Origin: Adineta vaga
Taxonomy: Eukaryota; Animalia; Rotifera
DNA: 64,000 bases
Reading direction: 5' to 3'
Assembly: GCA_021613535.1 (NCBI GenBank)
Contig: CP075497.1
Location: forward strand, 310,001 to 374,000
The notes under the pieces are model-generated. The model searched no databases. It saw only the letters and a program-made list of their open reading frames with translations, and had not been told where the DNA came from. The position numbers were made by a program, and so were the translations under genes. Within the stretch, counting starts at the first letter, position 1. Each line of letters starts with the position of its first letter. This document shows, one piece after another, positions 3,791 to 55,200 of this stretch.

Positions 3791-5508
3791 TCGTCTTGAT
3801 TTTGATTTTTAGTTTCATTAGTAAATATTATACACAGAGATACAAAAAGTGAATAATATTTAGCTCAACTTTGAATTGAAAGTTTTATTTAATTATAATG
3901 AAAATAATCGCATTTTTTGTTATGAACAGAAACTTGTTTCATTTTTTATCTTAATAAATTAATAAAACTTGTTTTTTTTTCTTGTATTTTGTTATTGTTA
4001 CAACCTTTCTCGAGTGAAAAATATTTTTGCTCAGAACATAAAACTTCATCTGTATTGATCAACGTTTTATTCATTCGTTTTAATATATTTATATCAATCA
4101 ATTTTATAATGTATTCAATCTCATTCATATTTATTCTTATTTGACGATAATTATGTAAGCGTATGGTATTTCAAAGAGTACGACTATTTTAGTTGAAGAT
4201 TATTTACAGATTCTATAGATAAACTTCGTTTCGCTCCTTTAATTTGCTTTTTCCATCTGTTTCTATGAATACAGATTATTATAGTAAAAATATAGACATT
4301 CTTAAATACATATAAAAAACTCTTTATTTCATTTCCAAAACAAAAGATAATGATCAATTAATGACCTGATGATGTGTAACTACACGAGTACTGCCTATCA
4401 ACATTGTATTCTATTTCCGTGCGTTTACCTAATACAGCTAGAGAGAAAAATACAAAATCGTTAAATCTGTCTGCACCATAATTAAAGATCTCCTATACGA
4501 AGAATTTAATACTCGTTCTCCTGAACAAATTAAATTCTATCTATTCCTTTTATCGTAAGTTATTATTTATCAAAATTTTCTCTTAAAATCTTATAACTTA
4601 TATCAACTAGTTTAATATACGTATTTTCTCGAGATAATATCGTTCTAGCTGAAATTATGTCGATCAAAGTGTATTTTGATAGAGTTTGATATGATATCTT
4701 CCATAGTAACATATTTCTATATAAAGGCTTTGTTAGAAAATCGATCTAATATATAATGATATGTTAAGAAAGAGCACGTCAATCATAACACAACAAAAAC
4801 AAATCTGGACAATTAGACTCATGATCAAGGGGATAAGTATAGAAACCAAATGCAGTAGCATCTAAGAATCCAGTTGACACAAAAGCAACCACAAGTTGGT
4901 TTAATTAGATCAGTAGAATAAATTTAAATAAAAATGATTCCGTCTGACTGTAGAGCGTGTAGTTAGAGTGCTCATATCATCCACAACTATCTACTTAAGA
5001 CGAAACCACTTAATCATTGAATTATTAAAAATACACTTCCCATTGCCGGAAGATTAAGGGTGGTGAGAAAAAATATTATAAATGAGATGAAAAATTTTAG
5101 AGCAATACAAAGATTCACGATTATTACATATATGTTCATGAGTATCTCTAGATGATTAATGTGGAAATAGATTGACATGAATGTCAATATTTTTAAAACA
5201 TCTAAATTTCAAATATTATCATGTTTCTTGATTTCTGTGAATAATATCCAAATTTCATTTTCTTATTTTATCTTCATTTCTGAAATCAATTGAATATTAA
5301 ATCATTTATTATTATGTATATAAATAGAACTTATCTTCATATGAAAGATAAATCGAATCGATCTTTTCATTCTCTATTTATACAAATAATTATTTATATT
5401 CTCATGTGCGTCATCATAAGACGAAAAAAGAATATTTTTTGTATCACATCAATAATGAGTCATCATCCGTTCTTTTAAGACTATACTATAAAAAGACACA
5501 ACCCACAC

Positions 5509-7718
5509 ATGAGTTACCTATCCCATACATTGCTCATTCGATTTAATGTCATTTATATTCATAATTACATATTAAACGTGTCTTTTTTTCTTTTATTCCC
5601 CACTATCTCATTCTATTATTTTCACTTATTTATTATTCAGATATGAAATCTCCATTGATAGAAAACCAAATGGCTGATAATGAAGAGCAACAATTAACAA
5701 TGACAAACAAAATCGAAAATAACGATAATCATATGAAAACAAATAGTTACATACCATATACAATTGATATGACAGTAATGAATAATAATAATGATGAAGA
5801 TCAATGTAAAACAATACGTCCTTGTCGAATAATTGATTTAACTGATAAAATATTAAAAGATAAGATAAGTAATTCAATATCAACATCATTTGATCCAATA
5901 ATTGGATATGGAGAAGAATCTCTTTTATCACTTCGTGAATCATGTCAATCACTTATTAATATTATTTATAATATATCATATTATGTTGAAATAGCACTTA
6001 ATAATACTTCATCTAAACCATCTGATGGATTAACAATTGATGAAAGTGCTTCTATTCGTCTTTATACAATGGAATGGGGTAAAGGTAATCAAAGTCTTTA
6101 TTTTATGCTTAATCGTGCACTTAATAATCCAAATCGAGAATATCTTCAACCTTATATGAAATATCTTAAATTATTATTAACTGCATTAGTTAAATTACCT
6201 TGTATGTCACCATTAACAATATGGAGAGGAGTTACTGAAGATTTAAGTAAAGAATTTTTACCTGGTTCATTAATAACATGGTGGGCATTTTCATCATGTA
6301 CAACAGAATTAACTGTTCTTGAAAATAATATTTATTTGGGTAAAAATGGTAATCGAACATTATTTTCAATTGAAACAATTAATTGTCGAACAATTCGTTC
6401 ACATTCAGATTTTATAACTGAAGATGAAGTTATTCTTTTACCAGGAACACAAATGATTGTACAATCACAATTTATGCCAGCTATTGATCTTCATATTATT
6501 CATTTAAAACAAATTATACCTCAAGATATTTTATTAGAACCACCATTTCAAGGTATTTTATTAAAATCAAATATTATTTCTTTTTCTTTATTTCATTTCT
6601 TTCAAATATTTAGGTGCAAATTTTTATCCTGAACCTAAGTAAATTATTAATTTAATTTTTTCTTTTTTTCTTATTTAATCTATTTTATATTTAGAAAACG
6701 TTCGTGGTATCGAAAGAAAACATTTCAGATTCCAATTTGTTTATTTGCAATGTTAATCATTGCTGCAATCATTATTGCTTCGGTTCTTGGAACAAGATTG
6801 GGTAATAGCGAAAATGGTACGATGTTTTTCTTTTTATGAATTGTATTGAATTGAGAAGTTTAAGACATTTGATTTTCCAAGAATCTTTCTCGTCATAATA
6901 ATATGAAAATTTAAATCATTTTTCTTTTCTATACAATAGATACTACTATCAATTGGAAAGGTGGTATGTGGGCTTTTTCGTGTGATTTTCCTGGTATAAA
7001 TACGAATATTGTCCCATCTGAATCATCGTTATGTGGAGAGAAATGTCAAAAAGATTCAAATTGTACACATTTTACGTGGACTAATGAAAACGGTGGTACT
7101 TGTTTTATGAAAGGAGGAAATGTAACGAAACAAGATGCATTCTTCAAAAATGATCCAACTATGATCTGTGGTGTAGCATATCTTAATGATTATGTAATGA
7201 AAAATCAAACTGTAAATTGGGAAGGAAACGATTGGGCTTATGCTTGTGATTTTCCTGATAATACTTTTTCAGATATATTAAGTATAGCAAATGATTGTGG
7301 TGTATTATGTTCTCAAACTCCACCGTGTTCTCATTTTACATGGAGTAAATATAATGGTGGTACATGTTTTATGAAAAAGGGTAATACGACAAAACAAGAT
7401 GCAGTCGTCACTAATGATCAGGGTATGGTCTGTGGTGTTGTACCGACAATTAATATTACGATATCAAATGAAACTATTCAATGGAAAGAAAACAACACAG
7501 CGAATTCATGTGACTTTCATAATAATGATCTTTCAAGCGTTCGAAGTGTAGTAACAGACTGTATTGGATTATGTTCTAAAACTCTATCTTGTACTCATTT
7601 CACGTGGAATTATCATGATGGTGGTACATGTTTTATGAAACAAGGAAATGTATCAAAGAATGATGCATTTTATACAAGTGATCCCACTATGATGTGTGGT
7701 ATTTTACTTTTTCTATAA
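5509..7718 (+). CDS. Type II membrane ADP-ribosyltransferase (ART-TM-3x PAN/apple), copy A
   Basis: Exons 5509-5512 (tentative; an alternative ATG is at 5643), 5641-6552, 6614-6638, 6695-6816, 6940-7718, phases consistent. R-S-E motifs WRGV / FSSCT / EDEV; basic stretch KKRSWYRKK then TM IPICLFAMLIIAAIIIASVLG; three CDFxxN..C..C....CTHFTW...GGTCFMK repeats. Confidence 0.85.
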
Positions 7719-7806
7719 AATATTTTATCACTAAAATGTTTTTGTGTATTTTATTCGATAATAAAAGTTTAATTAAATATTTTTACATGATATAAAAGAA
7801 AATAAA

Positions 7807-10085
7807 CTATATTAAACCACATATCATATTTAAATCATTAGTAGCGATTGCATCTTGTTTGGTCATATTACCCTTTTTCATAAAACATGTACCACCATTG
7901 TATTTATTCCATATGAAATGAGAACACGGAGGTGTTGTAGAACATATTCCAGCACAATCAGTTCCTATACTTATGATATTCGATATATCATTACCAGGAA
8001 AATCACATCCAATTGCTTGATTATTTTTTTGCCAATCTAAAGTTTTATTTGTTATCATGTAATCGAACGTATATGCTATACCGCAGATCATAGTTGGATC
8101 ATTTTTGAAGAATGCATCTTCTCTCGTCACATTTCCTCCTTTCATAAAACAGGTACCACCATTTATCTCAGTCCATGTAAAATGTGTACAATTTCGATTA
8201 TCGTAACATTTACCACCACAAGTTGGTGCAGAAGTTGAAACATTTGATATATCATTGCCATTGAAATCACATGAGTAAGCCCAATTTCTATCATCCCATC
8301 TGATTGTAGTATCAACTAAAGTTTTAAAAAAATTAGTGTGAAGCTGACACCACGAATTCAAATGAGTTCGAACTCCTTGAACAATACATTGCCACAGGTC
8401 GGGAACTACGTGAGGGTGTAGAGAATAGCTGTGTGAGCGCTACAACGCATCCTCCGACCTCCGGCAACATAATTTTCAGAAGTTCGAACTCGATTTGAAT
8501 TCGTGGTACTAGCTCAAGAAAAACTTTGTATATCTCGAGAAAAGAAACTATTCCAATATTTAACTCAAAAATATCTTACTTATTTTCTTCTTTTTAGATT
8601 TTGTTCCAAGAACCGAAGCAATAATGATTGCAGCAATGATTAACATTGCAAATAAACAAATTGGAATCTGAAATGTTTTCTTTCGATACCACGAACGTTT
8701 TCTAAATATAAAATAGATTAAATAAGAAAAAAAGAAAAAATTAAATTAATAATTTACTTAGGTTCAGGATAAAAATTTGCACCTAAATATTTGAAAGAAA
8801 TGAAATAACGGAAAAGAAATAATATTTGATTAATAAAATACCTTCAAATGGTGGTTCTAATAAGATTTCTTGAGGTATAATTTGTTTTAAATGAATAATA
8901 TGAAGATCAATAGCTGGCATAAATTGTGATTGTACAATCATTTGTGTTCCTGGTAAAAGAATAACTTCATCTTCAGTTATAAAATCCGAATGTGAACGAA
9001 TTGTTCGACAATTAATTGTTTCAATTGAAAATAATGTTCGATTACCATTTTTACCCAAATAAATATTATTTTCAAGAACAGTTAATTCTGTTGTACATGA
9101 TGAAAATGCCCACCATGTTATTAATGAACCAGGTAAAAATTCTTTACTTAAATCTTCAGTAACTCCTCTCCATATTGTTAATGGTGACATACAAGGTAAT
9201 TTAACTAATGCAGTTAATAATAATTTAAGATATTTCATATAAGGTTGAAGATATTCTCGATTTGGATTATTAAGTGCACGATTAAGCATAAAATAAAGAC
9301 TTTGATTACCTTTACCCCATTCCATTGTATAAAGACGAATAGAAGCACTTTCATCAATTGTTAATCCATCAGATGGTTTAGATGAAGTATTATTAAGTGC
9401 TATTTCAACATAATATGATATATTATAAATAATATTAATAAGTGATTGACATGATTCACGAAGTGATAAAACAGATTCTTCTCCATATCCAATTATTGGA
9501 TCAAATGATGTTGATATTGAATTACTTATCTTATCTTTTAATATTTTATCAGTTAAATCAATTATTCGACAAGGACGTATTGTTTTACATTGATCTTCAT
9601 CATTATTATTATTCATTACTGTCATATCAATTGTATATGGTATGTAATTTGTATTCGTTACATCTGTATTATTTTGTTCAATGAGATTCTGTTCCATTGA
9701 CGGAATTTTCGTTGCTGAAAAAGAAAAGTAAAATAATTTTATATTTAAATGATTTTTTAACATTTCTTTATCGTAATAGGAAAAAGACTTAAAATCTTTA
9801 TTTGAATCAATAAGAAAATGAGAAATACATTTGAATAGGACAAGTTGAGGTTATTGAGTTTAACTTCTTATTTTCAAAAATATTAAAGGTTATTTTTTGA
9901 CTTTTAATTCAATTTCTTTTCAGTGTTATATAAAATCGAAAATTTGTTTTAAAAAAATTCAATTATAAGAACAATTACCTTTGAAATAATCTGCAATGAA
10001 AACGAAAAAAAGATACGTTTATAGTTTAATTATAAATCTAAATGAGAACAAATCAATTGATGAATGTATTGGATAAGTTACTCAT
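7807..10085 (-). CDS. Type II membrane ADP-ribosyltransferase (ART-TM-2x PAN/apple), copy B, inverted paralog of A
   Basis: ORF 8783-9763 is nearly identical to the copy A ART; the TM exon near 8580-8701 matches A; the PAN exon near 7807-8315 has two repeats. 5' micro-exons ATGA (10085-10082) and ATTATTTCAAAG (~9990-9979) give MNYFKATKIPSMEQ. Confidence 0.85.
8342..8514. mobile_element. Hairpin MITE-like insertion in an intron of ART copy B
   Basis: About 60-bp imperfect inverted arms (agctgacaccacgaattcaaatgagttcgaact... / ...agttcgaactcgatttgaattcgtggtactagct); absent from the equivalent intron of copy A. Confidence 0.7.
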
Positions 10086-10504
10086 GCATAGGTCGTTTTT
10101 TTCTCACATTTGTATTGAAAGAACGAATGACTCAGTATTGATATAATATAAAAAATATTCTTTTTTCGTCTTATTATGACGCACATGAGAATAAGGTAGT
10201 GACTTATATATAAAGAGGGGGTCGGTTATTAAGACTTTTTTTTCGTGATTTGAGCGTGGGTAACTCTCTGGAGGGTGAGAGTGGTTGTGGATGTCTTCTC
10301 TTTCACCACCCACACCTTAGTTGATTATTTCTTTGTTGACTTTATGCAGCGAGAGAAAAAGAGCATCTTTTCATTTGCTTTTATTTGAGATATTCTAGAA
10401 TGTTAGATAAAATAAAAAATGGTGGATGTCAGTGTCGATGTAAATAAAGCATTACTATATATTCTCATCCATAGTGAAACTCGAATAAAACATTTGAGTT
10501 AGAA

Positions 10505-12414
10505 TCAAAATAGAAGTCTTTGTTCATTGTATTGAAAATACGTGTTTTTATTTTTATAAATAACCGTCCAACGATGATGTTGTCCATGATAGAGTCTTTT
10601 TTGTAATTTCTCGATGATATATTCTGAAATATGAAAACTTGTCAAGCACATTATAAAATGTTCCACATTGTTTTCTTCAGAATTGGCTACAATTATCTGT
10701 AGTAATGATCGAACATCGAATTTGCCGATATCTGTCAGCTCCAAATATGTCATGTATGGACATAAACATAGAAGAAATTGAACTTGTTCCAATGCAATGA
10801 ACGGTCCAAGTCGTACACTGACAATATTCTTGTGTTTGAAAGGTGTTTTAGAGGAGTTCCATTCGATTCCGAACGAAAATACATTGACAATCACCAGAGA
10901 AACAAGATTAGATAATAGATGCATTAAATGAAAGAAAATTTCTGGCAATATTTTACAGTAAATAAATAATTGAGTGATCTGTGTTGAAATGAAAAATGGA
11001 CGAATCTAGTTGAGAAATCTTTCAAGATTCCGAACGAAAGAAAGATCGAAGAGAATGAGTGAAATAGCTCCAGACAGTTGGACTGATTCGCTTGTTAACA
11101 TATGATTAGAGATGATTCGATCGGTTAGTTGACATTCAGAAAACGTATTAGATCTTTTTCTAAATCAAAAAGAATGAGATTGGTTATTTCATCGAATAAA
11201 CGTTGCAGACGTACTTTAACGGACTAATTGAAAAAGTGATCGATCCATCATATTTCTGATATTTCTCAATTTGAATTCGAAGCAACCATTGTCGTTCAGT
11301 CCAAAATGAAGAGCAAAATCGATTCAAGAATGTATGATAAGAATCTGATGAATATTGGTGAATAGAATAAATCTTACATTGTATATCAAACACACGTAAA
11401 CAAGGCATCGATATTGTAAACAATCGTTCCCATCGTTCCGCATTGATGTAGGCTATATTATACAAACCTTTTATGCGTAAGACTTGCAGTTCAAAGGATA
11501 ATTTCATCATAAATAATTCAAAATGATCAAATATCATCTGACAATCATCAATTGATAGGTATCTTAAATTCGGCAATGTAACTGCATATTGTAGATCAAT
11601 ATATTCTCCATGTTCAAATATACTTTTACAAACGAGTCGAGTAAGTTTTGTTGTACACGAAAGAATACTAATGAGATTGTACAAACTTAATGATTCAAGT
11701 AAGACTAAATGGTTGATTGAACTAAGGAGATTTTGTTGAGAATATGTGAAGAAAAATAGAGACAACTTGATTGAAATCGTACAATATTTCAACGATGATG
11801 AACTACAAAGAATTGTATAAAGATTATTCATTCCTAAAGTATTATTATTATGAACAGTTAAAGAAACAAGTCGTGATAGACAAGATAAACTGCTTAGAAT
11901 AGAATTAAATATATCCAATGGAGTGTTATACAGAATCAATGATTCCAAATGATAAAATGAGTCATCCAACGAAAAGAAAAGAGCCGGAAAAGGATCTTGT
12001 ACATAATCAATAAGTTGAAGTGCAATAATTCGATATTTATTTAAAGTGATAAAACATGAACGATCGTCGATATGGGATTTATTCGATTGCGAATACAATT
12101 TGATCTTTAATAATAATGTTGGACTTTGCAGAAGATTATCTAAATGAATATTGAGTTTGGAAAAAGCACGAAAGATTTCCCAACCATCGAGATAATCAAA
12201 AATTTCATGGAAAATTTCATTCGATAAATCTTTCAGATATGTTTTTATTATTGACTATAAATATTTTCAATTCTTCTTACCTTTGATAATCAATTATATC
12301 TGAAGAGAAGAAACAAAAACAATTTCTTTAATATATTCATTTTTTTGAATGTTTACCTCGTGATTTCTTTTCGAATAATTGTACATCATCGATGTTTTCT
12401 TTACTTGTATTCAT
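10505..12414 (-). pseudogene. Divergent F-box/LRR-type protein, probably truncated or pseudogenised
   Basis: N-terminal F-box-like LKDLSNEIFHEIFDYLDGWEIFRAFSKLN and LRR-like body with AERWERL..MPCLRVFD..FWTERQW. In-frame TAG at 11008-11006; I could not phase the 5' micro-exons. Confidence 0.65.
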
Positions 12415-19733: not shown

Positions 19734-20846
19734 ATGTGCTCTGCATCATCTCAATATCAAACAATGCCGGAACGTCAATTAGGTAAAAATGGTCCAAAAA
19801 TATCAGCTATTGGTTTTGGATTAATGGGTTTAGTTTCATCACCTGGAATTTCAACATCGGATGATGAAAGATTTAAAATCTTGGATCGTGCTATTGAACT
19901 TGGTTGTACTTATTTTGATAGTGCTGATATATATGGTGATAGTGAAGATTTATTAGGAAGATATTTCAAGAAATATCCAAATCAACGTAAAAAAGTTCGA
20001 TCAAATATTTTATTTTAGAATGAATTTTAAAAGATTATTTTTTTTAATTTTAAGGTACTTCTTGCAACTAAGTTTGGTAATGTAGTTAGTTCTGATTTCA
20101 GTTCTCTTTCAGTTCGTGGTGATGCACAATATGTTCGAGAAGCATTTGAAAAAAGTTTAACAAGACTCAATCTTGATTCAATCGATTTATACTATGTACA
20201 TCGTATTGATAAAAAAGTACCTATTGAAGAAACAATAAATGTTTTAAAAGAATTTGTTCAACAAGGTAAAATCAAATATATTGGTTTATCTGAATGTTCA
20301 AGTGATACACTTCGACGAGCATATAGAATTCATCCAATTACTTGTGTACAAGTTGAATATTCACCATTTAGTTTAGATATTGAAAAACAAGAAATTGCTC
20401 TTTTAAAAACATGTAGAGAACTTGGTGTAGCAATTGTTTGTTATTCACCTCTTGGTCAAGGTATTCTTACAGGAGGAATTAAAAGTCCAGATGATTTTCA
20501 ATCAAATGATTATCGAAGATTTTATCCACGTTTTTCCAAGGAAAATTTTCCCAAAAATCTTGAATTAGTCAACAAATTGATACTAATTGCTAAGAAGAAA
20601 AATTGTACACCAGGTCAATTAACATTAGCATGGATTCTTTCTCAAGGTAATGATTTTATTCCAATACCAGGTACACGCAGAATCAAATATTTAGAAGAAA
20701 ATTTTGCAGCAACTCAAATTAATTTAAGTAAAGAAGAACAACATGAAATTCGAGTAGCTTGTGAAACAGCCGATATAGTAGGTGAACGTTTTCCGGAACA
20801 TCTATGTGTCAATTTATATGCCGATTCAGGTCCTAAGAAAAACTAA
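19734..20846 (+). CDS. Aldo-keto reductase (yakc/AKR13-like); exons 19734-19994, 20055-20846
   Basis: RQLGKNGPKISAIGFGLMG, DSADIYG, ATKFG, IDLYYVHR, IGLSE, YSPLG, PIPGT; catalytic D-Y-K-H present. Confidence 0.92.
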
Positions 20847-20898: not shown

Positions 20899-22353
20899 TT
20901 AAGAAATATGTAAAACAGTTTGTATAAGTGGTGTTATTTGATCAATAGTTTGTGATGCTCTTATTTGTATATTAATAAATTCTCGAAATATTGTAGTACA
21001 TGTTTGAAGTCGAAAAATGTCTGTAATCATACGAGTAAATTGTTTATATGTTTTTATTTCACCTTGTTTATCAATTAAATAATTCCAAAGTATTTTTATA
21101 TAATAAGATTGAGCTCGATATACAGATAAAGAATTGTTAAGTGATGGTTCATTTTCATTCATTGATAAACCTTTAGAAAATATAAGAATAATCGTTAAAA
21201 GAGAAACTAATACTAAATCTTCATTAAGTGTTTCCATAGAAGAAATCATTAAATGAATTATTTTTGTATATATATTACTTGATGGATCACATATATTATA
21301 AAATTGACGTTTATTATCTGCTCCATCATATTCTTGAGAAGAATTCGATTGATTTATAGGTTTACAATTGTAACATAGAATGATACCAAAAAGTGAAAGA
21401 AGATTATATTTAATTAAAATAAAACGATCATCAGTATTTAAATTTTCAAATTCATTAATTAATCGACAATATTTAATAATATGAAGAGCAAGTTTATTAT
21501 GTGATTCTGACCAAGAGATTAATGCAGAAACACGATCAGTTAAATCAATTAGTTCTTTAGGTCCTTCTAATTGATTTTGAAAAATTAATAAAAAATCTGA
21601 TTGAATTGTATCAATAATAATCAAATCTTCAACTGTTAATGTTTCTAAAAATATATTTTTATCATTATTATTAAATGTTTGAGAAATACATGTTGATAAA
21701 ATATTTTGATTTTTTTCAAAACCTTTTCTTCGTTGTATTTCTTTTTGACTTAAAATAAAATTTGTTTTCATTCCCATTGCAAAACATCGAGTTAATCGAC
21801 ATCGATGACATTTTGAACGTTCTCCATTTACAATTTTACATTGATTTTCATTTCTTGAAGAACATTTTAATTTTGTCTAAAAATAAATTTAATTAAAAAA
21901 AATGAATCAAAAAATAAACTAACCAAATCTTGATGAGCATAACGATGAAAAAATGCTTTACATGATGCACAAGAAAGAACATCGTAATTAAATCCAATTG
22001 CACGATCACCACAAATTTTACAAATTAAATCGATTGATTTTCTTGATAATTTTCTTCGTTTTTCTTGATCATCTTGATCTGCATCGAGTGCTCGTTTATA
22101 TATTTGATCATTATTTGAATCCTATGAAAATATATTTATATGATTAATTAACATTTTAAATATTAAATATACGAACAAGTTCTGATAGACCAGCAAGAAG
22201 AGTCCAATTGATAATATTATTATTTATCATTGAAGTAACTTGTTTAGGATCATCTAAATCAATAATATGTGTATCTGAGACTTGTTTTGAAGCTATTTCA
22301 TCAACTAAACCTTCATTTGATGTTATAAATATCATTTTAGTTTGTTTTGTCAT
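20899..22353 (-). CDS. Nuclear hormone receptor (NR1-like), 3 exons
   Basis: C4 zinc fingers CKICGDRAIGFNYDVLSCASCKAFF and CHRCRLTRCFAMGMK; LBD signature INEFENLNTDDRFILIK. Exons ~22353-22177, 22121-21924, ~21877-20899. Confidence 0.92.
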
Positions 22354-35366: not shown

Positions 35367-36356
35367 ATGTTAAATATTATTATTATTATTATATTGTTTA
35401 TAATTCTTAATCAAACATTTGCTTATCGTTGGCGTAATTCATTTGCTATGAGACCAGCTGGACCAGATGCTCATTGGGGTTATGATTGTCCTGGAAATGA
35501 TTTTTTCAATTTTCATACATCAGGCTTCGAGTGTATGGATGCTTGTCGATGAACATCTGAATGTACTCATATTGTATGGTCAGAAACAAATAATCATACG
35601 TGTTATTTAAAAAATGGTTTATTTTCGGATAAAAATCTCAATTTTATTAATGATCGTGATACAATGTGTTCAAAATCATTTTCTAAAGTAATAGAAGATA
35701 AAGAACTTGATAAATTTAATAATACCATTGAATATAAATGGGATTGTCAAATTCCAAAATGTTCTCTATTTGCTGGTATACTTCGAAGTGATAATCCAGT
35801 TAATGTTTGTCTTAGTGATGGATATTCATTATCGGAAATTAGAAAATTCTTTAAAATTGGTAGTTTGAGAATGTTTATGCACGATCCATCGTATATGTGT
35901 AGTAATCAACAACCATGGTTTATTAATGATTCTTTAGCTTATGGATATGGTTTAATGGAATATGACGTAACTTCAGATATAGATTTTTGTTGTATTTGTT
36001 ATAAATTAAATTTTATGGACAATAAATTAAAACACAAAACAATGATCATTTAAATTATTCATCATGAATCGCAGTTTCACAGAGGTAGGCCTTTAGTTGT
36101 ATTATATGCTCCAGGAAGTAGTGATTATACTGTAAAATGCATCGATCAATGGCGAAATGGTAATTATCAATATGAGTATTCTTCAGATATAAAATCACGT
36201 GAAGAATGTTTTAAACTTCCTCAACCAATACAAAATGGATGTTTATTTAAATATGATTGGTTTAAAGGTATTGAAAAGCCAAATATGATTTATACGAAGA
36301 CACAATGTCCAAAAGAAATTATTGATAGAAGTGGATGTTATCAAGGTGTTGTTTAA
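35367..36356 (+). pseudogene. Signal peptide + PAN/apple + GH45 endoglucanase-like gene with two in-frame stops
   Basis: One continuous frame: DCPGND..C..CR*..CTHIVW..TCYLK; YKWDCQIPKCS; YMCSNQQPWFINDSLAYG; CCICYKLNF; KTMII*; CFKLPQPIQNGCLFKYDWF..CPKEIIDRSGC. Stops at 35550 and 36051. Confidence 0.82.
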
Positions 36357-37554: not shown

Positions 37555-39901
37555 ATGTTTTGTATAACAATCTTCCGTGTTATTTTCGCAGTTTTAGCAA
37601 CATTAATTATTGCCGATGGTTCATATCAGTTTGATTATTCTGGCAAAAATGCTGTTGCTGATTTACTTTCTGTAGCTCGAATTAGTAGAAGAAAACCAGG
37701 TAAAGTACCATCAACACTATCTGAGGTAGGAGCCGAATCCAAAAAAAGGGTTTATATAGCTTCGTATATACATAATCATATATTTTTATGAACTCTTACA
37801 GTTCTCATTACTTTCAGTTACTCAATGTCTTCAGCCATTTGGTATTCCAAATGTTTTTCCAACTGGGTTTTTACCATATTCAGTGATCTCAAATGATTTC
37901 GACAATGATGGCAAACGAGACCTAGCAATTGCCAATGCTGGGGACAATACTGTTAGTATTTTGTTAGGAAATGGTAATCGAACGTTTAGAAACCAGATAG
38001 TATATTCAACTGGGCACAATCCATTTTCAATCATCTCGGGTGATTTTAACAATGATAGTAAAGTAGATCTAGCAGTGGTCAATTTGGACAATGATACAGT
38101 TAGTGTTTTGCTCAATAATGGGGATGGAACATTTCGCAACCAGAGCGTGTACGCAACTGGTAGCCAACCGTTTTCTTTAACAGTGGGTGATTTTACAAAT
38201 GATGGCAAATTAGATCTAGCAGTGATCAATACTGAAGATAATACGGTTAGTGTTTTACTAGGAGATGGCTATGGTAGATTTAAAAATCACACAGTATATC
38301 CAGTTGGGAATACTCCACGCGCTGTGGTAGCAGGTGATTTTACAAATGATGGCAATGTAGACTTGGTAGTAACTAATATGAGAAGTTCTACGTTTAGTTT
38401 ACTTATCGGCAATGGCAATGGAACGTTCCGTGATCAGATGGTATATTCAACTGGCAATGAACCATATTCAGTGATTGCATGTGATTTTAACAACGACAAT
38501 AAACTGGATCTGGCAATTACTAATCTGTTTATGCCAATGGTAACTATTTTTCTTGGTAATGGGAATGCAACGTTCGAAATTTCGGGCGGATACAAAGTTG
38601 ATGACGTACCGTTTTCAGCCATATCAGGTGATTTCAATAAAGATGGCAAACTAGATATTGCAGTAACCAGTTTTAATAACGATGTAATTAATGTTTTTCT
38701 TGGTAAAGGTAATGGAGAATTCAAAAATCGGACAACATATTATGCAGGACTCATGCCAATTTCAGCTACATCGGATGATTTCAACAATGACGGTAAACTA
38801 GATTTGGCAGTAGTCAATAGTGATAATGCAATTGTTAATCTTCTTTCTAATAATGGAGACGGGACATATCGAGATCAAAGACGGTATCTAACTGATTACA
38901 AACCATATTCAGTGATCTCGGGCGATTTTAATAAAGATGGCAAACCAGATGTGATAGTAGGTAACTATGACAATCCGGTAGTGACTGTACTTCTAGGTAA
39001 TGGACGCGGCGCATTCGAAAATCAGACAGAGTACTTAGCTGGATATTATCCACGTGCAATAATATCAGGCGACTTTAATAATGATAATATATTAGATCTA
39101 GTAGCGGCCAATAGTGACGATAATACGGTTAGTGTACTCCTTGGTAATGGTGATGCTTCCTTCCGTAATCAAACAATGTATTCAACTGGAAATCAACCAA
39201 CGTCAGTGGTTTCGAGTGATTTCAACAATGACGGCAAATTGGATCTTGCCGTAGCAAATGTTCTAAGTAACTCCGTTAGTATTTTACTTGGCAATGGTGA
39301 TGGATCATTCAGCAATAAGATGGAGTACTCAACTGGTAGCGAACCAACTTCTGTCATATCTAATGATTTCAATAATGATGGATATAAAGATTTAGCAGTA
39401 GCAAATGTTGTCAGTTGTACAGTGAGCATATTTCTTGGAAAAGGCGATGGTACATTCGGTAATCAGACAGTATACTTCACTGGATTGTTTCCTAGATCAG
39501 TGATATCAAATGACTTCAATAACGATGGTAAACTAGATTTAGCAGTAGCCAATTCATACTTTAATCAGAATGGTACAGTCAGCATTTTTTTGGGTCGTGG
39601 AGATGGCACATTTGATAATTCCACTGAATACATGACTGGATATGGACCATATGCAGTGATCTCCGGTGATTTCAACAACGATACTAAACTTGATTTAGTA
39701 GTGGTCAATGGCGCTAGCTCAACAGTTAGCGTATTACTCGGCAACACTGACGGCAGCTTTCAAAATCAGCTACAATATCTAAGTGGAGAAAGTCCAAAAT
39801 CAGTAACATCTGTTGATTTAAATAACGATAAAAAACTTGACTTGGTAATCGCAAATAAGGTGGGATCCAGTTTGACCATTCTTCTGAACTCTTGTTCATA
39901 A
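37555..39901 (+). CDS. Secreted FG-GAP/VCBS repeat protein, 14 repeats; exons 37555-37699, 37818-39901
   Basis: Hydrophobic N-terminus, phase-1 intron, 14 DFNxDGxxDL..LGNGDGTF repeats. Confidence 0.9.
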
Positions 39902-45660: not shown

Positions 45661-48600
45661 TCAATTACAATCAGCTGAGAAAACACCGACATTATTTCCA
45701 TCGTAATTTGGAACAATAAGATCGAGTTTACCATCAGAATTAATGTCTGCTGTTACTACAGCATAAAGAGGATATCCTGTAGCGTAGGTCTTTTGAGAAC
45801 CGAAAGTACCGTTTCCAATATTGAGGAGAACGCCAACGTTGTTTGACGCGGAGTTTGCAACAATGATGTCTAATTTGTTGTCTCCATTCATGTCGCCAGT
45901 TACTACAAAGTATGGTTGCGAACCAGTGGCATAGATCATTTGAGTCCCAAACGTTCCAGTGCCGGTATTAAGGAGAACACCAACGTTGTTTGAGCCGTAA
46001 TTAGCGACGATAATGTCCGGTTTGCCGTCTAAATTGACATCAGCTACTGCTACAGAATGCGGCTGACTGCCAGTTGAATAAGTGACTTGAGTACCAAATA
46101 TACCAGCACCACTGTTAAGGAAAACACCAACGTTGTTTGCACCATTATTTGCGACAATAATGTCGGGTTTGTTATCTCCATTGACGTCAATTGCCGACAC
46201 AGAATGCGGCTGAGAGCCAGCTGGATAGGTCACTTGAGCACCGAATGTACCAATTCCGGTGTTGAGGAGAACACCGATATTGTTTGACAAAAGGTTTGCA
46301 ACAATAATGTCGGGTTTGTTATCTCCGTTGAGGTCAACGATCGAAGCCGAATGCGGCTGAGAACCAGTACCGGTGGAATAGATGACTTGAGGCGCGAACG
46401 TGCCAGTACCATTATTAAGAAGAATGCCAACGTTACCTGCATCAGAATTTGCGACAATTAGATCGAGTTTACCGTCGGAATTGACATCAACTGCTCCGAC
46501 AGACCACGTCAAACCAGGACCCACTGAATATTTGACTAGACCAGCAAACGTACCGTTACCAGTATTAAAAAGAATACCAATTTCATCTGAGCCAGAAAGT
46601 CCCACCACAATGTCCGGCTTTCCATTACCCTTAAGGTCACCTGTTGTTATGGGAAATGGCTTAGATCCACTGCCAGTTGAATAGGTAATTTGTGTCGTAA
46701 AATTTGTACATACAACTGTTATGAGAAAACAAAACATTAGCTTTTATGTGATAATATCGAAGGATCGCGTTATTGAAACGGTTTTGTTTTTGTAAGAACT
46801 TTCTCTCAGAAATTGCTGCTACAAAGCAAACGAAAAGGTAGGAAGTGTTTTCTTTGAAAAAGTTTTCGCTTGCTTTCGATTAATCTCAATATTTTGTCTT
46901 ATTACCATCACAGTTTCTACTAGAGTATATACCCTCATATGTCTAACTGCAAACTGACAGGCTGTCGTATTTTTAAAATACTTAGTTCAGATTATGTGGA
47001 AAATTTCACATTAGTTTTAGACTGGAAGTTTATATCCAGACTCATCAATGCGAATTTTGGCACGACAGATAGAATTCAATAAAAGTCGTATGTATATAAA
47101 GGTAAGTCAAAGCACACGAGAATATATGCACAAACAACGCACTCGCATGGACAAATTTTGGTATCTCGTGTCATATGTTATCTCATTATAAAGAAACAAC
47201 AAGTTTTCTAGTCTGTTCCTTTTATCTGTAGTGCGCCATCAACTACGCGACAAGAAAACAGGGTAAGATTGAAAAAGTCAATGAGAAAAACCGGATGGTT
47301 AACAGCTTCTTCTACTAGCCCTATAGACAGAATGTTTATCGTATATGGGAGTACAAAAGCAAATGCGATCTTACCTCTTGTAGTTGATGTTGTCAATGCT
47401 GTTGAGGAAACCGTTGTTGAAGCTGTTGTCGAAATCGTTGTTGATGCTGCTGTTGTTGAAGCTGTTGTGGACACCGTTGTTGAAGCTGTAGTAGAAATCG
47501 TTGTTGAAGCTGTAGTGGAAATCGTCGTTGATGCTGCTGTTGTTGAAGCTGTAGTGGAAATCGTTGTTGATGCTGCTGTTGTTGCGTTTACTGGTTGTAC
47601 TGATATTGTGATTGTTGCTGAATTAGGTTTGGTGAGAAAGGAGAGAAGTATTGCAGCAATAATAGTGCCAAGAAGAATAAGAGCAATTAGAGACAACAAT
47701 AAACAGCAAGGTGAACATCGGAAACAAATGGAATAAAGAAAACTAAGTAAAAGATTTTCAAAATATAACATGGAAAAAAGTGCAAAACATTTATTTACCC
47801 TTTCTTTTTGTTTCTTTTTGACTTCTGATATCGTGTATCTCTTAAATCTGTTTGGTTTAACTGTTTATCAGGTACCTAAATTGATTTAAAAGATAACTAT
47901 GAATAACAAATAAATAGGTAGTTTCGGTCAGATATGCGCCGAGTAGCTTGCATTCAATCAGTAGGATACAAGTATTTAATTTATGTATGTCTACCTGCTG
48001 ATAAGAACCCAATTTTGGACGGAATGCATTATTTTCGGTTCATACTTAATCCAGTAGATTGACATACAAAAAATCAGATGCTTGTTACATTTTGATATAA
48101 CACAAGTTCTTAGCAATTCATTCAATTATTAACTATGCAGTTTTAGCATAAAATCAATTCAAAATATTTGTAATATTGTACCAACTTAGTTTTACATCTA
48201 ATCACTGACTTTCAAATATAGGGATGAGTTCTGTTTATTTTTACTGATGAATCATTATTGACTATTGATGCTCTTTCTTGATTGTATGCTTCATATTTCC
48301 CAGCTGTGTCATCTGTTCTTGTTGGCAGGCCATTCTGTTGTGGTGAGTTTTTCTTCATATCATAATTTTTGTCTTGACTGCGTAATGGCTATTACGAAAG
48401 AAAAAGACCTCAACAGATTTTGAAATGACAATCATAGTCACACAATCACCCTCCATTATCAAAATATTTATGAACGTTATTTAAAGGATCTCACCGAAAG
48501 CAAATTGTTTTCATGCTTGACAGACTTGTTGCTTGTTGAAGTGATACTCTTTGGTGACCGAATGGTTGCATGAATGACAACATTAGGTCGCTTGGCTTTT

Positions 48601-49281: not shown

Positions 49282-52200
49282 TTATTTTAAAATATATGAT
49301 GCTCTTTTACTCATATATTTAATAGCGAGAGTTTTCATAAGTTCAATGAATTCTTGATTATGTTCTTGTATTTCATTGTGTGCCAGTTCGTGACATATAA
49401 CCATGTAGTAAAAATTGACAATATTCTGAACAATAAAATTTGATGGAGTTGGATTTTGTTGAAAACTAGTAAATTTTTTCGCATAGACTTGTTCGAAATA
49501 ACGAAGATTAAAGAAAAGAGAACCATTATTATTGAAAGCAATACGATCTGTCAAAACGAAAATCGAAGAATAGATTTATTTAATATCTCATATCTACTTA
49601 CTTCCATTAATATCTCGAAAAAGATGAAAAATATTAACGGGTAGTTCAAATACATGTTGTGCAAGATTATTTAGAACCCATGCGAGTTGTTCAGCTTGTT
49701 TAAGCATATCTTTTGTGATAGTTGCATTTTGTTCAATAAAAAGAGGAATTGAATAAAACATTTTTTTATAACGTTTTCCTGTAATAGCGGATTTTTCTAT
49801 ACATTGATATTCGATACGTTGTTGAACATTTTCTGTTTGACTCAGCAGTTGATCGGTATAACTCTGACACTCACGAATCATATTCTGTATCCACTCGTCG
49901 TCATCTCGATGTAAAGATTCAAAATCATCAATACGATGATCACGATTAAATCGTTCTTTTGTTGATATCTGACGAAAATTATCAGTAGATTTCACGTCAG
50001 GTTTTTGTTCACATTGTGAATCTAAAATCAATTCTTTTTAAATCCAATACACATATAATCTTTATATTTACCATTGTTTCTTGATTTTTGTACTTTATTA
50101 GATGAATTATCTTTATTGATATTACCTTGTGAACGATTCTCAATCACAGGTTTATCTGTTTCCATTTTTGGCGATAGAATTTCATTATCTCTATACGATG
50201 CAGAGGGTGTTGACGACATGTTATCATCGATCAACTGATCCACAGGCACATTACGTCGTTTTAGTTGCGCTAATGACAAAAAAAGTTTATCTTTTAATAT
50301 AGAAATTTGTTCATCCGATGGTTTTCGAAATACAAATTGAGCAAATACAGTTGCAATATGAAAATATTCAATTTCATGTTCATCTTCTTGTAAATATAGA
50401 ATTACGTTGTCGTCATTGGCAACAATTGAACAAAACATACTTTCATTTCGCTATAATATATATATGAAAGTTTTATAAATAAAATTAAGAATATAATCTT
50501 AATTACATCAAGTATAATCGTTTTCTCTTGAAATGTTAATTCAGATCGTATATTATCGTTTTCATAAATTAATAAATTTTTTTCTAAAAGCTTAAAATGA
50601 GTTGTATTAATATCCAATAATCGCTCACACTATATGAAAATGAGAAGAAATCAGTTTTTCTTTCTTTTAATCAAATAACCTACGTGATTATTAACGAATA
50701 AAATTGGAAAACGATGAGAAATTAATTCTTGTAATTTTTCACATCGATTCGATTGACTTGTTTTACCTAAAAAATTGATTAAATTTCTGAATCTATTCAA
50801 CTCTTTGTTAAAGATAAACTTACCAATTGGAAAAGATGTTTCTTTAACATAATTCGATATCCAAGGTGCTCCAAAATTTTCATATAAATTTTGAATTTCA
50901 ACAATATATGGTGCACATAATAATTGAAATTTTCTTACACAAAGAGAATGATCATCTAGAAAAACATCACATGACTTCACAATTTCGAATGTCTCGTGTT
51001 TACTATCAATTTTCTTATATCCAAGACACCAAGGTTCATTAGATAATCGATGCTTTAGAGTTGTTGTCAATTTTGATATATCCACTGCAAGTTTTTTCAA
51101 GCAATTTATATAAAACTCGATTTTATCGGATAAAATTTCCTTATTATCGTAAGAACTACGAAAATAATTTTGTTGTCGATCCAGAATAATCTGAGCAAGT
51201 ATTAATGGTGATGGTGAATAAGAAACACCAATTTTCTTTAGAAAACAATTTCCTTCTTTTCCAAAATTAACATAATCAATTAATCCATTTGTATTGTGAT
51301 CATTATTTATCGAATTATCTGAATAAATAAAAACTTCATATGGTTTTTTCCATAAATTATTTCCTAAAGAAAAAAAAAAAAAGAAGAAAATGTTTTGTTT
51401 AATAAAAAGAAACTTTTCTATTTAATATAAAACAAACCTTGAATAAAAAGAGGAATAAAATCAATTTGATTAACATATTTATTAAAATGATCATCATTTT
51501 GTTGATAAATTTGATTAAAATAACTAAAAAGTTTAATTAATATTTCATTTATTAATAAAAATTCATTTTTTCTTTTTAAAAATAAATCAAAAATAAAATG
51601 AATTGTTGGTGATGATTTTATATTAAATATTGATTTATTTAATGAATATTTATTTAATAATTCAATTACTTGAGATAATAAAATATTACATAATGGATTA
51701 TTATCTTAAAAATAATATAAAATAAAGAAATATTTATTAAATTTACAATTTACCTATATAAACTTCAATTGTTTTTGATAAAATAATTTCATATTTATTA
51801 TTAATTAGATTTAGTGAAGAACGTGATGGAAGAAATGAATAATTTTCATAAGATTTTGTCCATAATTTTGAATAATATTCAGAAAAATATTTAATAAAAT
51901 AAATAAATGATAAAGATAATTTATATTTCGATTCATTTGTTTTTTCTTCAACACATTTTTCATTATGTTCTTGAGTAATTCGATGAAATAATAATTCTAA
52001 ATCAACAAATTCACGAACACCTAATTCTTTAAGAAATAAATATTCTTTGGAATTTAATTTTATATTAAGCCAATCAATTATTGGTAATTCACAACAATTT
52101 AATTCATTTTTAACACATGGAAAATAAAGTTCTTGTGGAACATATCGACGAGTTGTTGTTCCCGTTGAATTAGATACCGTTCCTATTCTCAGAAAATGAA

Positions 52201-55200
52201 ATATTGAAATTAAAGGTGATGATACTTTTATGTACATCCTTATCCTAAAGAGTATATACTAACCTTGAAGCCATCTATTTCGTTTCAAAGCATCAAAATC
52301 TGCATCAGTCATATTCTCCCGTTCTTTGATTAATCTTTGAATTAATATTTCCATTGTTTCATTGAATGATAAAGTTTGAGATTCAATAAATGATTGTAAA
52401 TGAAAAGTACGACATCCAATTCGTTTAAGAAATTCAATTGAAACGAAATCTTGTTGAATGATATTGAATTCAATAATTGGAATATCAGATGATGAAAGAA
52501 TTGTTGATGGAATATATGATTCATCAGGTATTCTTATACCACGTGTTGTTTGTATACATTTAATATCAGATAAAATTAATTTTATTTTATTCCATTCTGA
52601 TTCTTGAAATAGATTTGATTGTTTTGAAAGAAAACTAAGTAATTGTTCATTAGCACGTAAATGATAAAATATATATCCTTGATTTGGATGTAAATAATAA
52701 TCAATTATCTCGATAATTGACCATGGAGTTAATTTTAATTTTCTTTGAAGTTCTTCTCTTGAAAAATGAATAACAATATTATTTGATAAAATATATTGTG
52801 GAAGTTTAAGAAGTGATGGAATATTAAATAAATCATAATATTTTAAGTTTTTAACTAATATTATATTTGATTGAATTGTTTCTTGAAATCGAACAAGAGA
52901 AAGAATACGTTGAGACCATTCATTAGTTATTTCATTTCTAGATAAATAATGAATTAATTGAATAAATTCTTTAAGTGTAAGAATAGAAATGGATTCGGAA
53001 AGTTTATGTTCAATTAATTGATAATCAACATATTTTATTAATCCACGTTGATGAAAACATCTAAGAAAATCATTTTGACATAATTCAAATGAAACAAGAG
53101 GAATTCGAAGAAATAAATCGATATATGGAGAAGAAGATAAATATGCATTTTTAAACAAATGTATACGTAAACGAGAGTCTGTTGTTGAAGTAATCACAGG
53201 TACAAAAAGTTTTGATTCATTAATGAAGAATGCTGATTGAATTGTATCACATAAAAATAAGAAATATATATGTATATGTTATGTATATTTTGATATATTT
53301 CATACTGATCTCATTGTTTAGTACAGAAGATTGAAATTGAAATGGAGAAATTGAAAGAAATGCTTCTTGTTTTGTTTTGATAGATGTACTATTAGTTATC
53401 ATTTGATCATAAATAAATCGAACAATTTGTCCAGTTGACAAAAGTAATTCTTTATTCCATTGTGAAATATATGAATCTTGAAAATTAAGATTTTCACGTT
53501 CGATTGTTGGTATAAAATGACTGAAAATATGCATTCCAATGCCTGTTGTTTGTTGTGTTCCAAGACCAATAAATATATAACCTTGAAATATATTAATCAT
53601 TAATATTATAATTGAAAACAAAAGCAATAGTTAACTAACCAGTAGGAATTATTTTTTCTTTACAGAATTTGATTGGTAAAATGGATTTGAAAATTGTATT
53701 ATCGATTTCAAGATCTGTTGATGATTGAATTTGTTTAATTACCTATGAAATGGAAAGATATGAAAATATTAAACGAAACAGAAATCAAATGTACAGAGTT
53801 GGGTGTATATAAAAGTTCAATATGAATTGTATTTAGTAAATCTTTCTTTAGAATGTGTCGAATTTGTTGATGAAATTCTTTATTAATTATTACAGATGCT
53901 TTTATAGAAATATGATTTAAAGTAATAGAAGGACCATCAGTAATTGTGAATGTTTGTTCGTTTTGAACAATTGAATCAAAACGAAATAAATGGTTCAAGG
54001 ATTTTTTTACATCAAAATCCACTATAGTCATCGGTAAGATTTGACGTGTTTTAGTCTTGCGAATTTCAAATACGTTTTTATCATTGATTTTAATAACAAG
54101 TTCATTAATATGCTTAGTAAATGAAAGTACTAAAATCAAAAAAAATATATACAGAAGATATATAATATGAGAATTGTTATTTTTAACCTTTTGTGAAATA
54201 ACTTTTCAGTTGAGGTAAATTCATAGTTAAGAAAGTTTCAGTTTGCTCGGTAATTGGATGATTCAATAAAATATATTTTTTGTTTAAAGATAAACAAATT
54301 GAAGTCGGATGTGGTTGTTTCTCAACAGGTAAACTACGAATACATGTTTTCAAAACTTTATCATCTTGCCAAGTAAAGGTCATCAATTTTGTCCCCGAAA
54401 TAATGATTGGTTCTTCACAAAGTGAAAACACAGAGAAAAATCCAACACCAAACTGACCAACTGAATCAACGTCCGTATTTCCTTCTGCAATAGTAGCTAC
54501 GCGATTCCAATCGATTTCACTAAAATCACGTCCATTGTTAGTTGCACAAATTTCTGTAATACAACTATTATGAAAATCCATCTCTAAGAAAATAAACAAC
54601 GATTCGATTGATAAAATTATATGATCGACATCCTCACTCCAAAATTCTTCGGGTATTACTACTTTACGCTAACACCACACACACCCAACTTTTCGAGATG
54701 GCATGTTGGTCACTCCTACTAACACCCACAACTCGATGAGTTATGCTCACTAACACCCCCTTTCTTAACCTTTTAAGAGAAGTAAACCCCTGACAAACTC
54801 GAAAAAATCACCTTCTTCAACGCTAACACCCAATAACTCTCTTATAGTCCACACAAACATCCAAACTAGTCTAAACTAACACCCACACAATTGAAAAATC
54901 TACATTTTTGAAAGCAAACGTCGTGTGCTCCCATTGAGTTTTAGGGATCTGGGTGAACATCTGGGTGGAATTCTTAAGGGTCTCAAATTAGTGCGCGAAA
55001 GTAGACCAGAATTTTCCCATTTCTTTCTATGATATACACCCTCACTCATGAGGCTGAAAGGGTACAAAGCTTATGAAATATGTTGATATGAGTCTGTATG
55101 AATATGTGTGGGTGTGGGTGAAGATAGGGATTGACTTGTTCATATTAAGCGAAGGATGAGTTTGGTAGCGAGTAAGCGTTAATGCACTTTAGGACATCAT

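Follow-up and report, generated by a model that had tools for sequence, protein, structure and literature searches.

We analyzed a stretch of 64,000 nucleotides (nt) from the bdelloid rotifer Adineta vaga (assembly GCA_021613535.1, contig CP075497.1, positions 310,001 to 374,000; hereafter the window, whose own numbering is used throughout), in which two genes fusing an ADP-ribosyltransferase (ART) domain to PAN/apple repeats are arranged tail to tail between 5643 and 9697. The window is AT-rich (~30% GC) and its introns are short and bounded by GT..AG. Gene A (5643..7718, + strand) consists of four exons that, once joined, give an open coding sequence (CDS) of 1836 nt encoding 611 amino acids (aa). 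Gene B (9697..7807, − strand) mirrors this layout with four exons and 503 aa. Pfam searches placed PF01129 (ART) in the first exon and PAN_1/PAN_4 in the last exon of each gene. The original prediction had proposed that separate open reading frames (ORFs) for the ART and the Cys-rich repeats are spliced together through a transmembrane (TM) exon, with the basic stretch KKRSWYRKK preceding the helix. The gene models bore this out, as the exons join into the open 611-aa frame.

Exon 1 of gene A (5643..6552) begins with the ATG at 5643, encodes a disordered N terminus (aa 1–77) followed by the ART domain (aa ~78–303) and ends in phase 1. Within it lie the codons for R195, the Arg of the R-S-E motif (6225..6227), for S217-S218-C219 of the S motif (6291..6299) and for E260-D261-E262 (6420..6428), the ExE form that constitutes the arginine-specific signature. 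Intron 1 (6553..6613, 61 nt) is followed by a 25-nt exon 2 (6614..6638) encoding the conserved juxtamembrane stretch GANFYPEPK, and intron 2 (6639..6694, 56 nt) by exon 3 (6695..6816), which supplies KKRSWYRKK, the TM helix (aa 326–345, 6735..6794) and a short stalk. After intron 3 (6817..6939, 123 nt), exon 4 (6940..7718) encodes three PAN/apple repeats (6981..7169, 7245..7433 and 7509..7697, first to last Cys) and ends in the stop codon TAA (7716–7718). All three introns are GT..AG. On the opposite strand, exon 1 of gene B (8842..9697, ATG 9697..9695) carries the ART domain by Pfam, exon 2 (8758..8782) again measures 25 nt and exon 3 (8580..8701) encodes the same basic stretch and a TM helix (8661..8602), followed by KSKKKKI. 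Intron 3 of gene B (8316..8579, 264 nt, GT..AG) contains an inverted-repeat insert, and exon 4 (7807..8315) encodes two PAN/apple repeats (8271..8083 and 8007..7819) up to the stop codon at 7809..7807. An Rfam search of 5000..10500 returned zero matches.

The three junctions proposed for gene A (6552/6614, 6638/6695 and 6816/6940) were found as GT..AG joints in contigs from sequencing runs X1, X2 and X3 of one study (P1) and X11 of another (P4). The first joint is present in X1 and X2, the second in X1, X2 and X3, and the third in all four runs; RNA-like contigs of X1, X2 and X11 cover exon 1 and also contain exon 2. A 1349-nt contig of X1 spans 5707..7292 over all three junctions, and a 1846-nt contig of X11 runs intron-free through 5633..6554, exon 2, 6695..6815 and 6939..7710, nearly the entire CDS. 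The joints are missing from the genomic runs X8 and X10. A database protein of 424 aa (P0075) is identical to gene A residues 188–611, which means that these junctions were also chosen by an independent gene call. Rather than placing the ART and PAN exons on separate transcripts, the gene A contigs join all four exons: the ART, the TM exon and the PAN repeats are on a single transcript.

Transcript support for gene B comes from a chain of overlapping contigs, with no single contig spanning the gene. One contig of X3 runs unbroken over the ART exon (8840..9515) and then into exon 2/3 sequence common to both genes, and the joint of intron 3 (8315/8580) is present in X2 and X3. The gene B ART exon is uncovered in contigs of X1 and X2, a gap that proves nothing because the ART copies of A and B are nearly identical. 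The public A. vaga model of gene B (P0040) is chimeric, taking ~250 aa from an unrelated upstream gene (ORFs ~10508..12254, − strand) and splicing out residues 130–280, the catalytic core; the X3 contig over 8840..9515 does not support that splice. Separately, some contigs of high depth in X1, X3 and X11 (one of them with 581 nt at a depth of 317) share only 18-nt stretches with the ART exons (5845–5862, 8844–8861 and 9532–9549), diverge from the window beyond these and are probably transcripts of other, more strongly expressed ART paralogs.

The two genes are related by an inverted repeat of ~1.1 kb (left arm 5712..6829, right arm 8567..9682) that spans the ART, introns 1 and 2 and the TM helix. 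A repeat search aligned the arms over 853 nt at 97% and a further 265 nt at 94% identity, and blastn aligned 1064 nt at 98.7%, introns 1 and 2 included. From aa 35 onward the gene B ART exon is 95–100% identical to that of gene A, and between residue 35 and the end of the helix the copies differ by three nonsynonymous and two synonymous changes (synonymous divergence, dS, 0.01). The PAN exons give a pairwise dS of 0.50 and a nonsynonymous divergence (dN) of 0.28 (omega 0.56). These alignments are most simply explained if gene conversion took place between the two inverted arms that hold the ART and the TM helix, and if the ectodomains are older and went on diverging. The upstream regions are also related (5397..5594 versus ~10000..10193, 198 nt, 78.8% identity), so the duplication took in the promoters. 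Intron 3 measures 264 nt in gene B and 123 nt in gene A; the gene B copy contains a GC-richer insert with inverted-repeat arms at ~8329–8377 and 8478–8527. It looks like a small foldback element or one resembling a miniature inverted-repeat transposable element, to judge from its arms; no second copy was found within the window, and it had no Rfam match.

By profile, motif and fold, the proteins of genes A and B belong to the ARTC/PF01129 family. Exon 1 of gene A matched PF01129 with an E value of 1.3e-06 and 28.4 bits (cutoff 22.3) and that of gene B with 28.6 bits; among 126 aligned family members, 114 matched the profile (best E 2.4e-26). The catalytic R, SxC and ExE motifs, described as intact in the original prediction, are in place as R195, S217-S218-C219 and E260-D-E262. 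R195, S217-S218 and E260-x-E262 are present in both genes alike and conserved across the family (R195 in 118, S217 in 109, S218 in 123, E260 in 106 and E262 in 118 of the 126). An AlphaFold (AF2) model built from the 126-sequence alignment has a predicted local distance difference test (pLDDT) score above 92 over aa 80–303, with a disordered N terminus. Foldseek searches with this model returned 143 Protein Data Bank (PDB) matches at E ≤ 0.001, and the top ranks among the matches listed are R-S-E ARTs, in agreement with the R-S-E identity assigned beforehand. The neighbors include HopU1 (3u0j, 1e-10), Vis (4xzk), rat ART2.2 (1gxy, 1.7e-10), XopAI, Tre1 (6drh), C3 and ExoT. Pfam detected no toxin delivery domains, and gene A is a spliced eukaryotic gene with three GT..AG introns. 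In the passages of a 2010 review that treat the motif, the ExE variant marks arginine specificity (PMC3102197), and arginine is accordingly the specificity predicted for the rotifer ART.

The same data bear on whether the ART is a pseudoenzyme serving as a scaffold or binding module, or the fusion a chimeric or artifactual transcript. Such an explanation could draw on the modest Pfam score of 28.4 bits and on the sequence search of PDB chains with the ART exon, which yielded no ART and merely a spurious match at E 0.45. We nevertheless judge it very unlikely, given that the R, S and two E positions are conserved in 106–123 of 126 relatives, that the fold model is confident and ART-like, and that spliced contigs come from two studies while the same architecture recurs in Adineta steineri and in ENA/JGI assemblies.

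The helix of gene A comprises 20 residues (326–345) with a Kyte–Doolittle mean of 2.94 over 19 residues, and it has an N-side flank with a net charge of +6 and a C-side flank with a net charge of 0. Neither protein has a hydrophobic segment within its first 40 aa, and the C terminus of each is a PAN repeat, not a glycosylphosphatidylinositol (GPI) signal. Among 61 longer homologs, 29 have exactly one strong hydrophobic helix, located 40–100 aa past ExE. Topology was assessed on a set of 29 proteins comprising gene A, gene B and 27 of the TM-bearing homologs. None of them (0/29) has a signal-peptide-like N terminus (largest 10-residue hydropathy, 1.73). In 23 of them the N-side flank has a higher net charge than the C-side flank, in 2 the charges are equal and in 4 the N side is lower (medians +5 versus +2), and the density of N-x-S/T sequons rises from 1.1% ahead of the helix to 2.5% beyond it. 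Many relatives carry a Ser/Thr- or Pro-rich stalk C-terminal of the helix. Among the ART positions checked in the 126-member alignment, C219 is the sole conserved Cys and the ART thus has no conserved disulfide pair, in contrast to the six Cys of each PAN repeat. The presence of a TM helix also tracks the type of partner domain. It accompanies outside-type partners in many cases (Laminin_G_3 14/14, FG-GAP 6/8, peroxidase 3/7, PAN 3/5 and LCCL 1/1) and cytosolic-type partners in none (LRR_6 0/11, NHL 0/3, Kelch 0/2, ankyrin/TIR 0/1, HSP70 0/1 and clathrin 0/1).

Taken together, the lack of a signal peptide, the flank charge, the sequon density, the distribution of Cys, the tracking of the helix with partner type and the signal-like starts of other proteins bearing this PAN subtype favor an N terminus on the inside. 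The predicted type II topology, with the N-terminal ART cytoplasmic and the PAN repeats outside, is thus well supported in silico. The original prediction had already placed the ART inside and the PAN repeats outside; several independent in silico lines agree with that assignment, although the orientation remains a predicted one. The reverse, in which the helix is inserted N-terminus-out or the protein is processed such that both ART and PAN repeats are extracellular, has precedent, since vertebrate ARTCs are described in passages of the 2010 review as secreted or GPI-anchored ecto-enzymes, as had been assumed beforehand, and all characterized vertebrate arginine ARTs count as ecto-enzymes there (PMC3102197). 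It can also appeal to gene B and 4 of the 29 relatives, in which the C-side flank equals or exceeds the N side in basic character. An ecto-enzyme is nonetheless extremely improbable in view of the 0/29 signal peptides, the folded domain of ~300 aa ahead of the helix and the more basic N-side flank in 23/29. The conserved Cys pair missing from the ART, versus six Cys per PAN repeat, and the cytosolic partner domains borne by soluble paralogs argue in the same direction.

On the other side of the helix, exon 4 of gene A matched PAN_4 (E 2.5e-15) and PAN_1 (E 7.4e-15) in three stretches. Counted from its first Cys to its last, each repeat is 63 aa long and contains six Cys; gene A has three repeats and gene B two. 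An AF2 model of the PAN region (pLDDT 83) gave the apple domains of factor XI and prekallikrein as its best Foldseek matches (2e-10), followed more weakly by the galactose-binding lectin SML-2 of Sarcocystis (5e-06) and MIC4. A search with the PAN exon produced ten matches, four of which carry GH5, GH45, GH20 or thaumatin, two are proteases, three are ARTs and one consists of PAN only. By source, they include tardigrade GH5 and GH45 proteins, a chytrid GH20 with CBM1, a rotifer thaumatin, an astacin and a trypsin, and five of the seven non-ART matches have a hydrophobic signal-like start. The partners and signal-like starts therefore mark this PAN subtype as an extracellular module, frequently attached to proteins that degrade or bind polysaccharides. 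By analogy with these partners, the pattern fits a glycan ligand for the PAN ectodomain and is compatible with one, which falls short of proof.

A further PAN protein is encoded in the window itself, at 35367..36053 (+ strand), where the product combines a signal-peptide-like start (MLNIIIII...) with a single PAN repeat of this subtype and a GH45 domain (Pfam E 7.9e-13). The domains of this fusion are those claimed in the original prediction, but its reading frame contains an in-frame TGA (35550–35552), which stands where the PAN repeat normally has a residue, after its third Cys and ahead of its fourth. The TGA could reflect a pseudogene allele, an assembly error or read-through.

The nature of the ectodomain also bears on a reading that keeps the predicted topology and dispenses with ligand control. 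In this case, the PAN repeats would be only an adhesion or localization module (matrix, cuticle or cell–cell contact) holding a constitutively active ART at a membrane patch, where it would modify, for example, actin or trafficking proteins. Such a tethered enzyme is consistent with protein-binding apple domains being the best structural neighbors of the PAN model and with the ectodomain dN/dS of 0.56, which shows no sign of an arms race. It accords less well with the presence of the same PAN subtype otherwise on secreted hydrolases and thaumatin.

Organism names are attached to 51 of the 61 longer homologs of the ART exon, and all 51 are bdelloids (Adineta, Rotaria and Didymodactylos), with A. 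vaga closest. In a list of 120 near-length matches, the named ones are bdelloid, plus one record labeled as a Sphagnum assembly, and in the ESM Atlas Rotifera is the commonest phylum in four of the five cluster rows listed, the fifth being Haptophyta. Clustering at 50% identity leaves 3195 representatives of the family at E ≤ 0.001 and, with the stricter threshold of E ≤ 1e-30, 373. By these sequence counts, the ART family is very large in bdelloid rotifers. A Pfam census of the 126 members found ART in 114, LRR_6 in 30, NHL in 5 and PAN in 3, together with single cases of ubiquitin, UEV, Ras, SAM and MACPF-like domains, and one member (P0052) joins the ART with ankyrin and TIR. The ART-TM-PAN architecture of genes A and B is present in Adineta steineri and other assemblies, and automatic ART+PAN models are already public.

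In a tree of ART cores, all 28 TM-bearing rows (28/28) fall into one clade of 39 (96 in the Shimodaira–Hasegawa-like approximate likelihood ratio test). The sister clade contains 16 soluble rows (LRR_6, ankyrin/TIR, HSP70 and clathrin), and the NHL fusions fall outside. Inside the TM clade, rows with PAN, Laminin-G, FG-GAP or peroxidase partners are intermixed, which indicates that ectodomains were exchanged on a conserved ART-helix part; an LCCL partner is also present. A juxtamembrane motif, LLEPPFEGA.LYPK ... WY[RK]KK, is common to the clade. In 7 of its 11 TM-less rows, the sequence passes from the exon-1/exon-2 end directly into the ectodomain, as expected if these gene models missed the TM micro-exon. 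FG-GAP, the ectodomain repeat type of other ART-TM paralogs, also occurs elsewhere in the window in two FG-GAP-rich ORFs (37760..39898, + strand, and 45664..46743, − strand; Pfam E 2.6e-115 and 6.9e-75, respectively), with no ART match near either.

This family structure speaks both ways on the constitutive tethered enzyme. FG-GAP, Laminin-G and LCCL are common adhesion modules, as that reading would have it. On the other hand, many unrelated ectodomains swapped onto one ART-TM part form the pattern of a sensor family, as do the soluble ART-LRR, NHL and TIR paralogs, and we regard constitutive activity without ligand control as unlikely. A third possibility shares the receptor layout and differs in output: the ART would act mainly as an NAD+ glycohydrolase or hit an essential target, and ligand binding would kill or shut down the cell, as with TIR NADases, rather than pass on a reversible signal. 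The TIR/ankyrin, LRR and MACPF-like fusions in the family and the cell-disabling toxins and effectors among the structural neighbors are in line with such a suicide-type immune receptor. We still consider it distinctly unlikely, as the first E of ExE is kept in 106/126 members and is, in passages of the 2010 review, part of the arginine-transfer signature (PMC3102197).

The reading that we prefer, and hold to be moderately likely, is that the single-pass ART-TM-PAN protein works as a receptor in which a ligand outside the cell controls arginine ADP-ribosylation or NAD+ consumption inside it. The original prediction had suggested a similar function, a sensor of a glycan or microbial surface that signals by Arg-ADP-ribosylation or NAD consumption, and this function is still a hypothesis. 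A ligand on the outside, which may be a polysaccharide or the surface of a microbe or of food, would bind the PAN repeats. Binding, probably through clustering, would switch on the cytoplasmic ART, and the active ART would then ADP-ribosylate arginines of cytosolic targets or consume NAD+. More tentatively, and with greater doubt than belief, genes A and B may represent a bdelloid class of surface receptors with a cytoplasmic arginine-ART output in place of a kinase, TIR or death domain, built from a conserved ART-helix part and interchangeable glycan- or surface-binding ectodomains, with soluble ART-LRR, NHL and TIR sensors in parallel.

Several points weigh against the receptor reading. The runs that contain the splice joints are recorded as 'RNA?' (a guess) or '?', and their complementary DNA nature was deduced from the intron-less GT..AG joints. 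The topology was inferred from hydropathy, flank charge and analogy; the helix of gene B has a C-side flank almost as basic (+4) as its N-side one (+6), and 4 of the 29 relatives have the opposite flank-charge bias. The intact R-S-ExE motif does not prove activity, nor does it separate a transferase from an NADase. Protein-binding factor XI apple domains stand ahead of lectins among the neighbors of the PAN model, and glycan would thus be only one ligand option. The pairwise dN/dS of A versus B gives no sign of positive selection on the ectodomain. Finally, the tree is a quick maximum-likelihood version computed on 58 ART cores.

Beyond the ART, PAN and FG-GAP genes, the loci 20031..20843 (+ strand), 20902..21876 (− strand) and 50654..53278 (− strand) of the window hold an aldo/keto reductase, a zf-C4 ORF of the nuclear-receptor type and two ORFs with matches to DUF3684.

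Arginine ADP-ribosylation within animal cells has long been detected biochemically, and ARH1 is known as its cytosolic remover. In passages of the 2010 review, no intracellular arginine-specific ART had been characterized, and enzymes of this kind seemed confined to phages, bacteria and vertebrates (PMC3102197). A transcribed animal family in which an intact R-S-ExE ART is predicted to lie on the cytosolic side of a receptor-like protein offers a concrete, testable example of an intracellular arginine ART, and possibly a new mode of transmembrane signaling or innate immune sensing. If the broader reading as a bdelloid receptor class is true, this class would be the first whose receptors signal through ADP-ribosylation, and its ART the first R-S-ExE enzyme native to an animal that faces the cytosol. 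The Gene Ontology term 'protein ADP-ribosylation' is reported as enriched in excerpts of two A. vaga stress transcriptome studies (PMC10809525 and PMC12220480), and in the excerpted part of the spaceflight paper among them the enrichment is interpreted via PARPs. These enrichments may partly reflect the rotifer ART family and not only PARPs. The original prediction knew of no characterization of this architecture, and our full-text literature search likewise turned up no description of rotifer ARTs, ART-TM-PAN proteins or receptor-like ARTs, with one review that possibly touches such fusions lying outside its coverage. The sequences are already public as automatic models; the receptor-like reading is new as far as the literature search shows.

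Compared to known systems, the rotifer ART resembles vertebrate ARTC1–5 (rat ART2.2, 1gxy) in its PF01129 match, its R-S-ExE motif, its predicted fold (1.7e-10) and its predicted arginine specificity. Unlike those enzymes, it has neither a signal peptide nor a GPI signal, is predicted to be cytosolic, ahead of a single internal helix, shares its protein with PAN repeats and shows no conserved Cys pair. Bacterial R-S-E effectors and toxins (HopU1 3u0j, Tre1 6drh, Vis 4xzk and C3) provide the best or near-best structural matches and share a cytoplasmic site of action, which is predicted in our case. They are, however, delivered into another cell by secretion systems or binding components, whereas the rotifer genes are intron-bearing animal genes with products predicted to reside in the producer's own membrane. 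NAD+-consuming TIR receptors and adaptors (Toll-like receptors and SARM1) likewise combine a sensor module with a cytoplasmic NAD+-using domain, although catalytic fold and chemistry differ. The G-type lectin or S-domain receptor kinases are described as an expanded plant family in immunity and stress responses. They too consist of a PAN-containing ectodomain, one TM helix and a cytoplasmic protein-modifying enzyme, an arrangement that is predicted for the rotifer proteins. The parallel is one of layout: the output here would be an ART and not a kinase, the topology type II and not type I, and the two share no homology beyond PAN.

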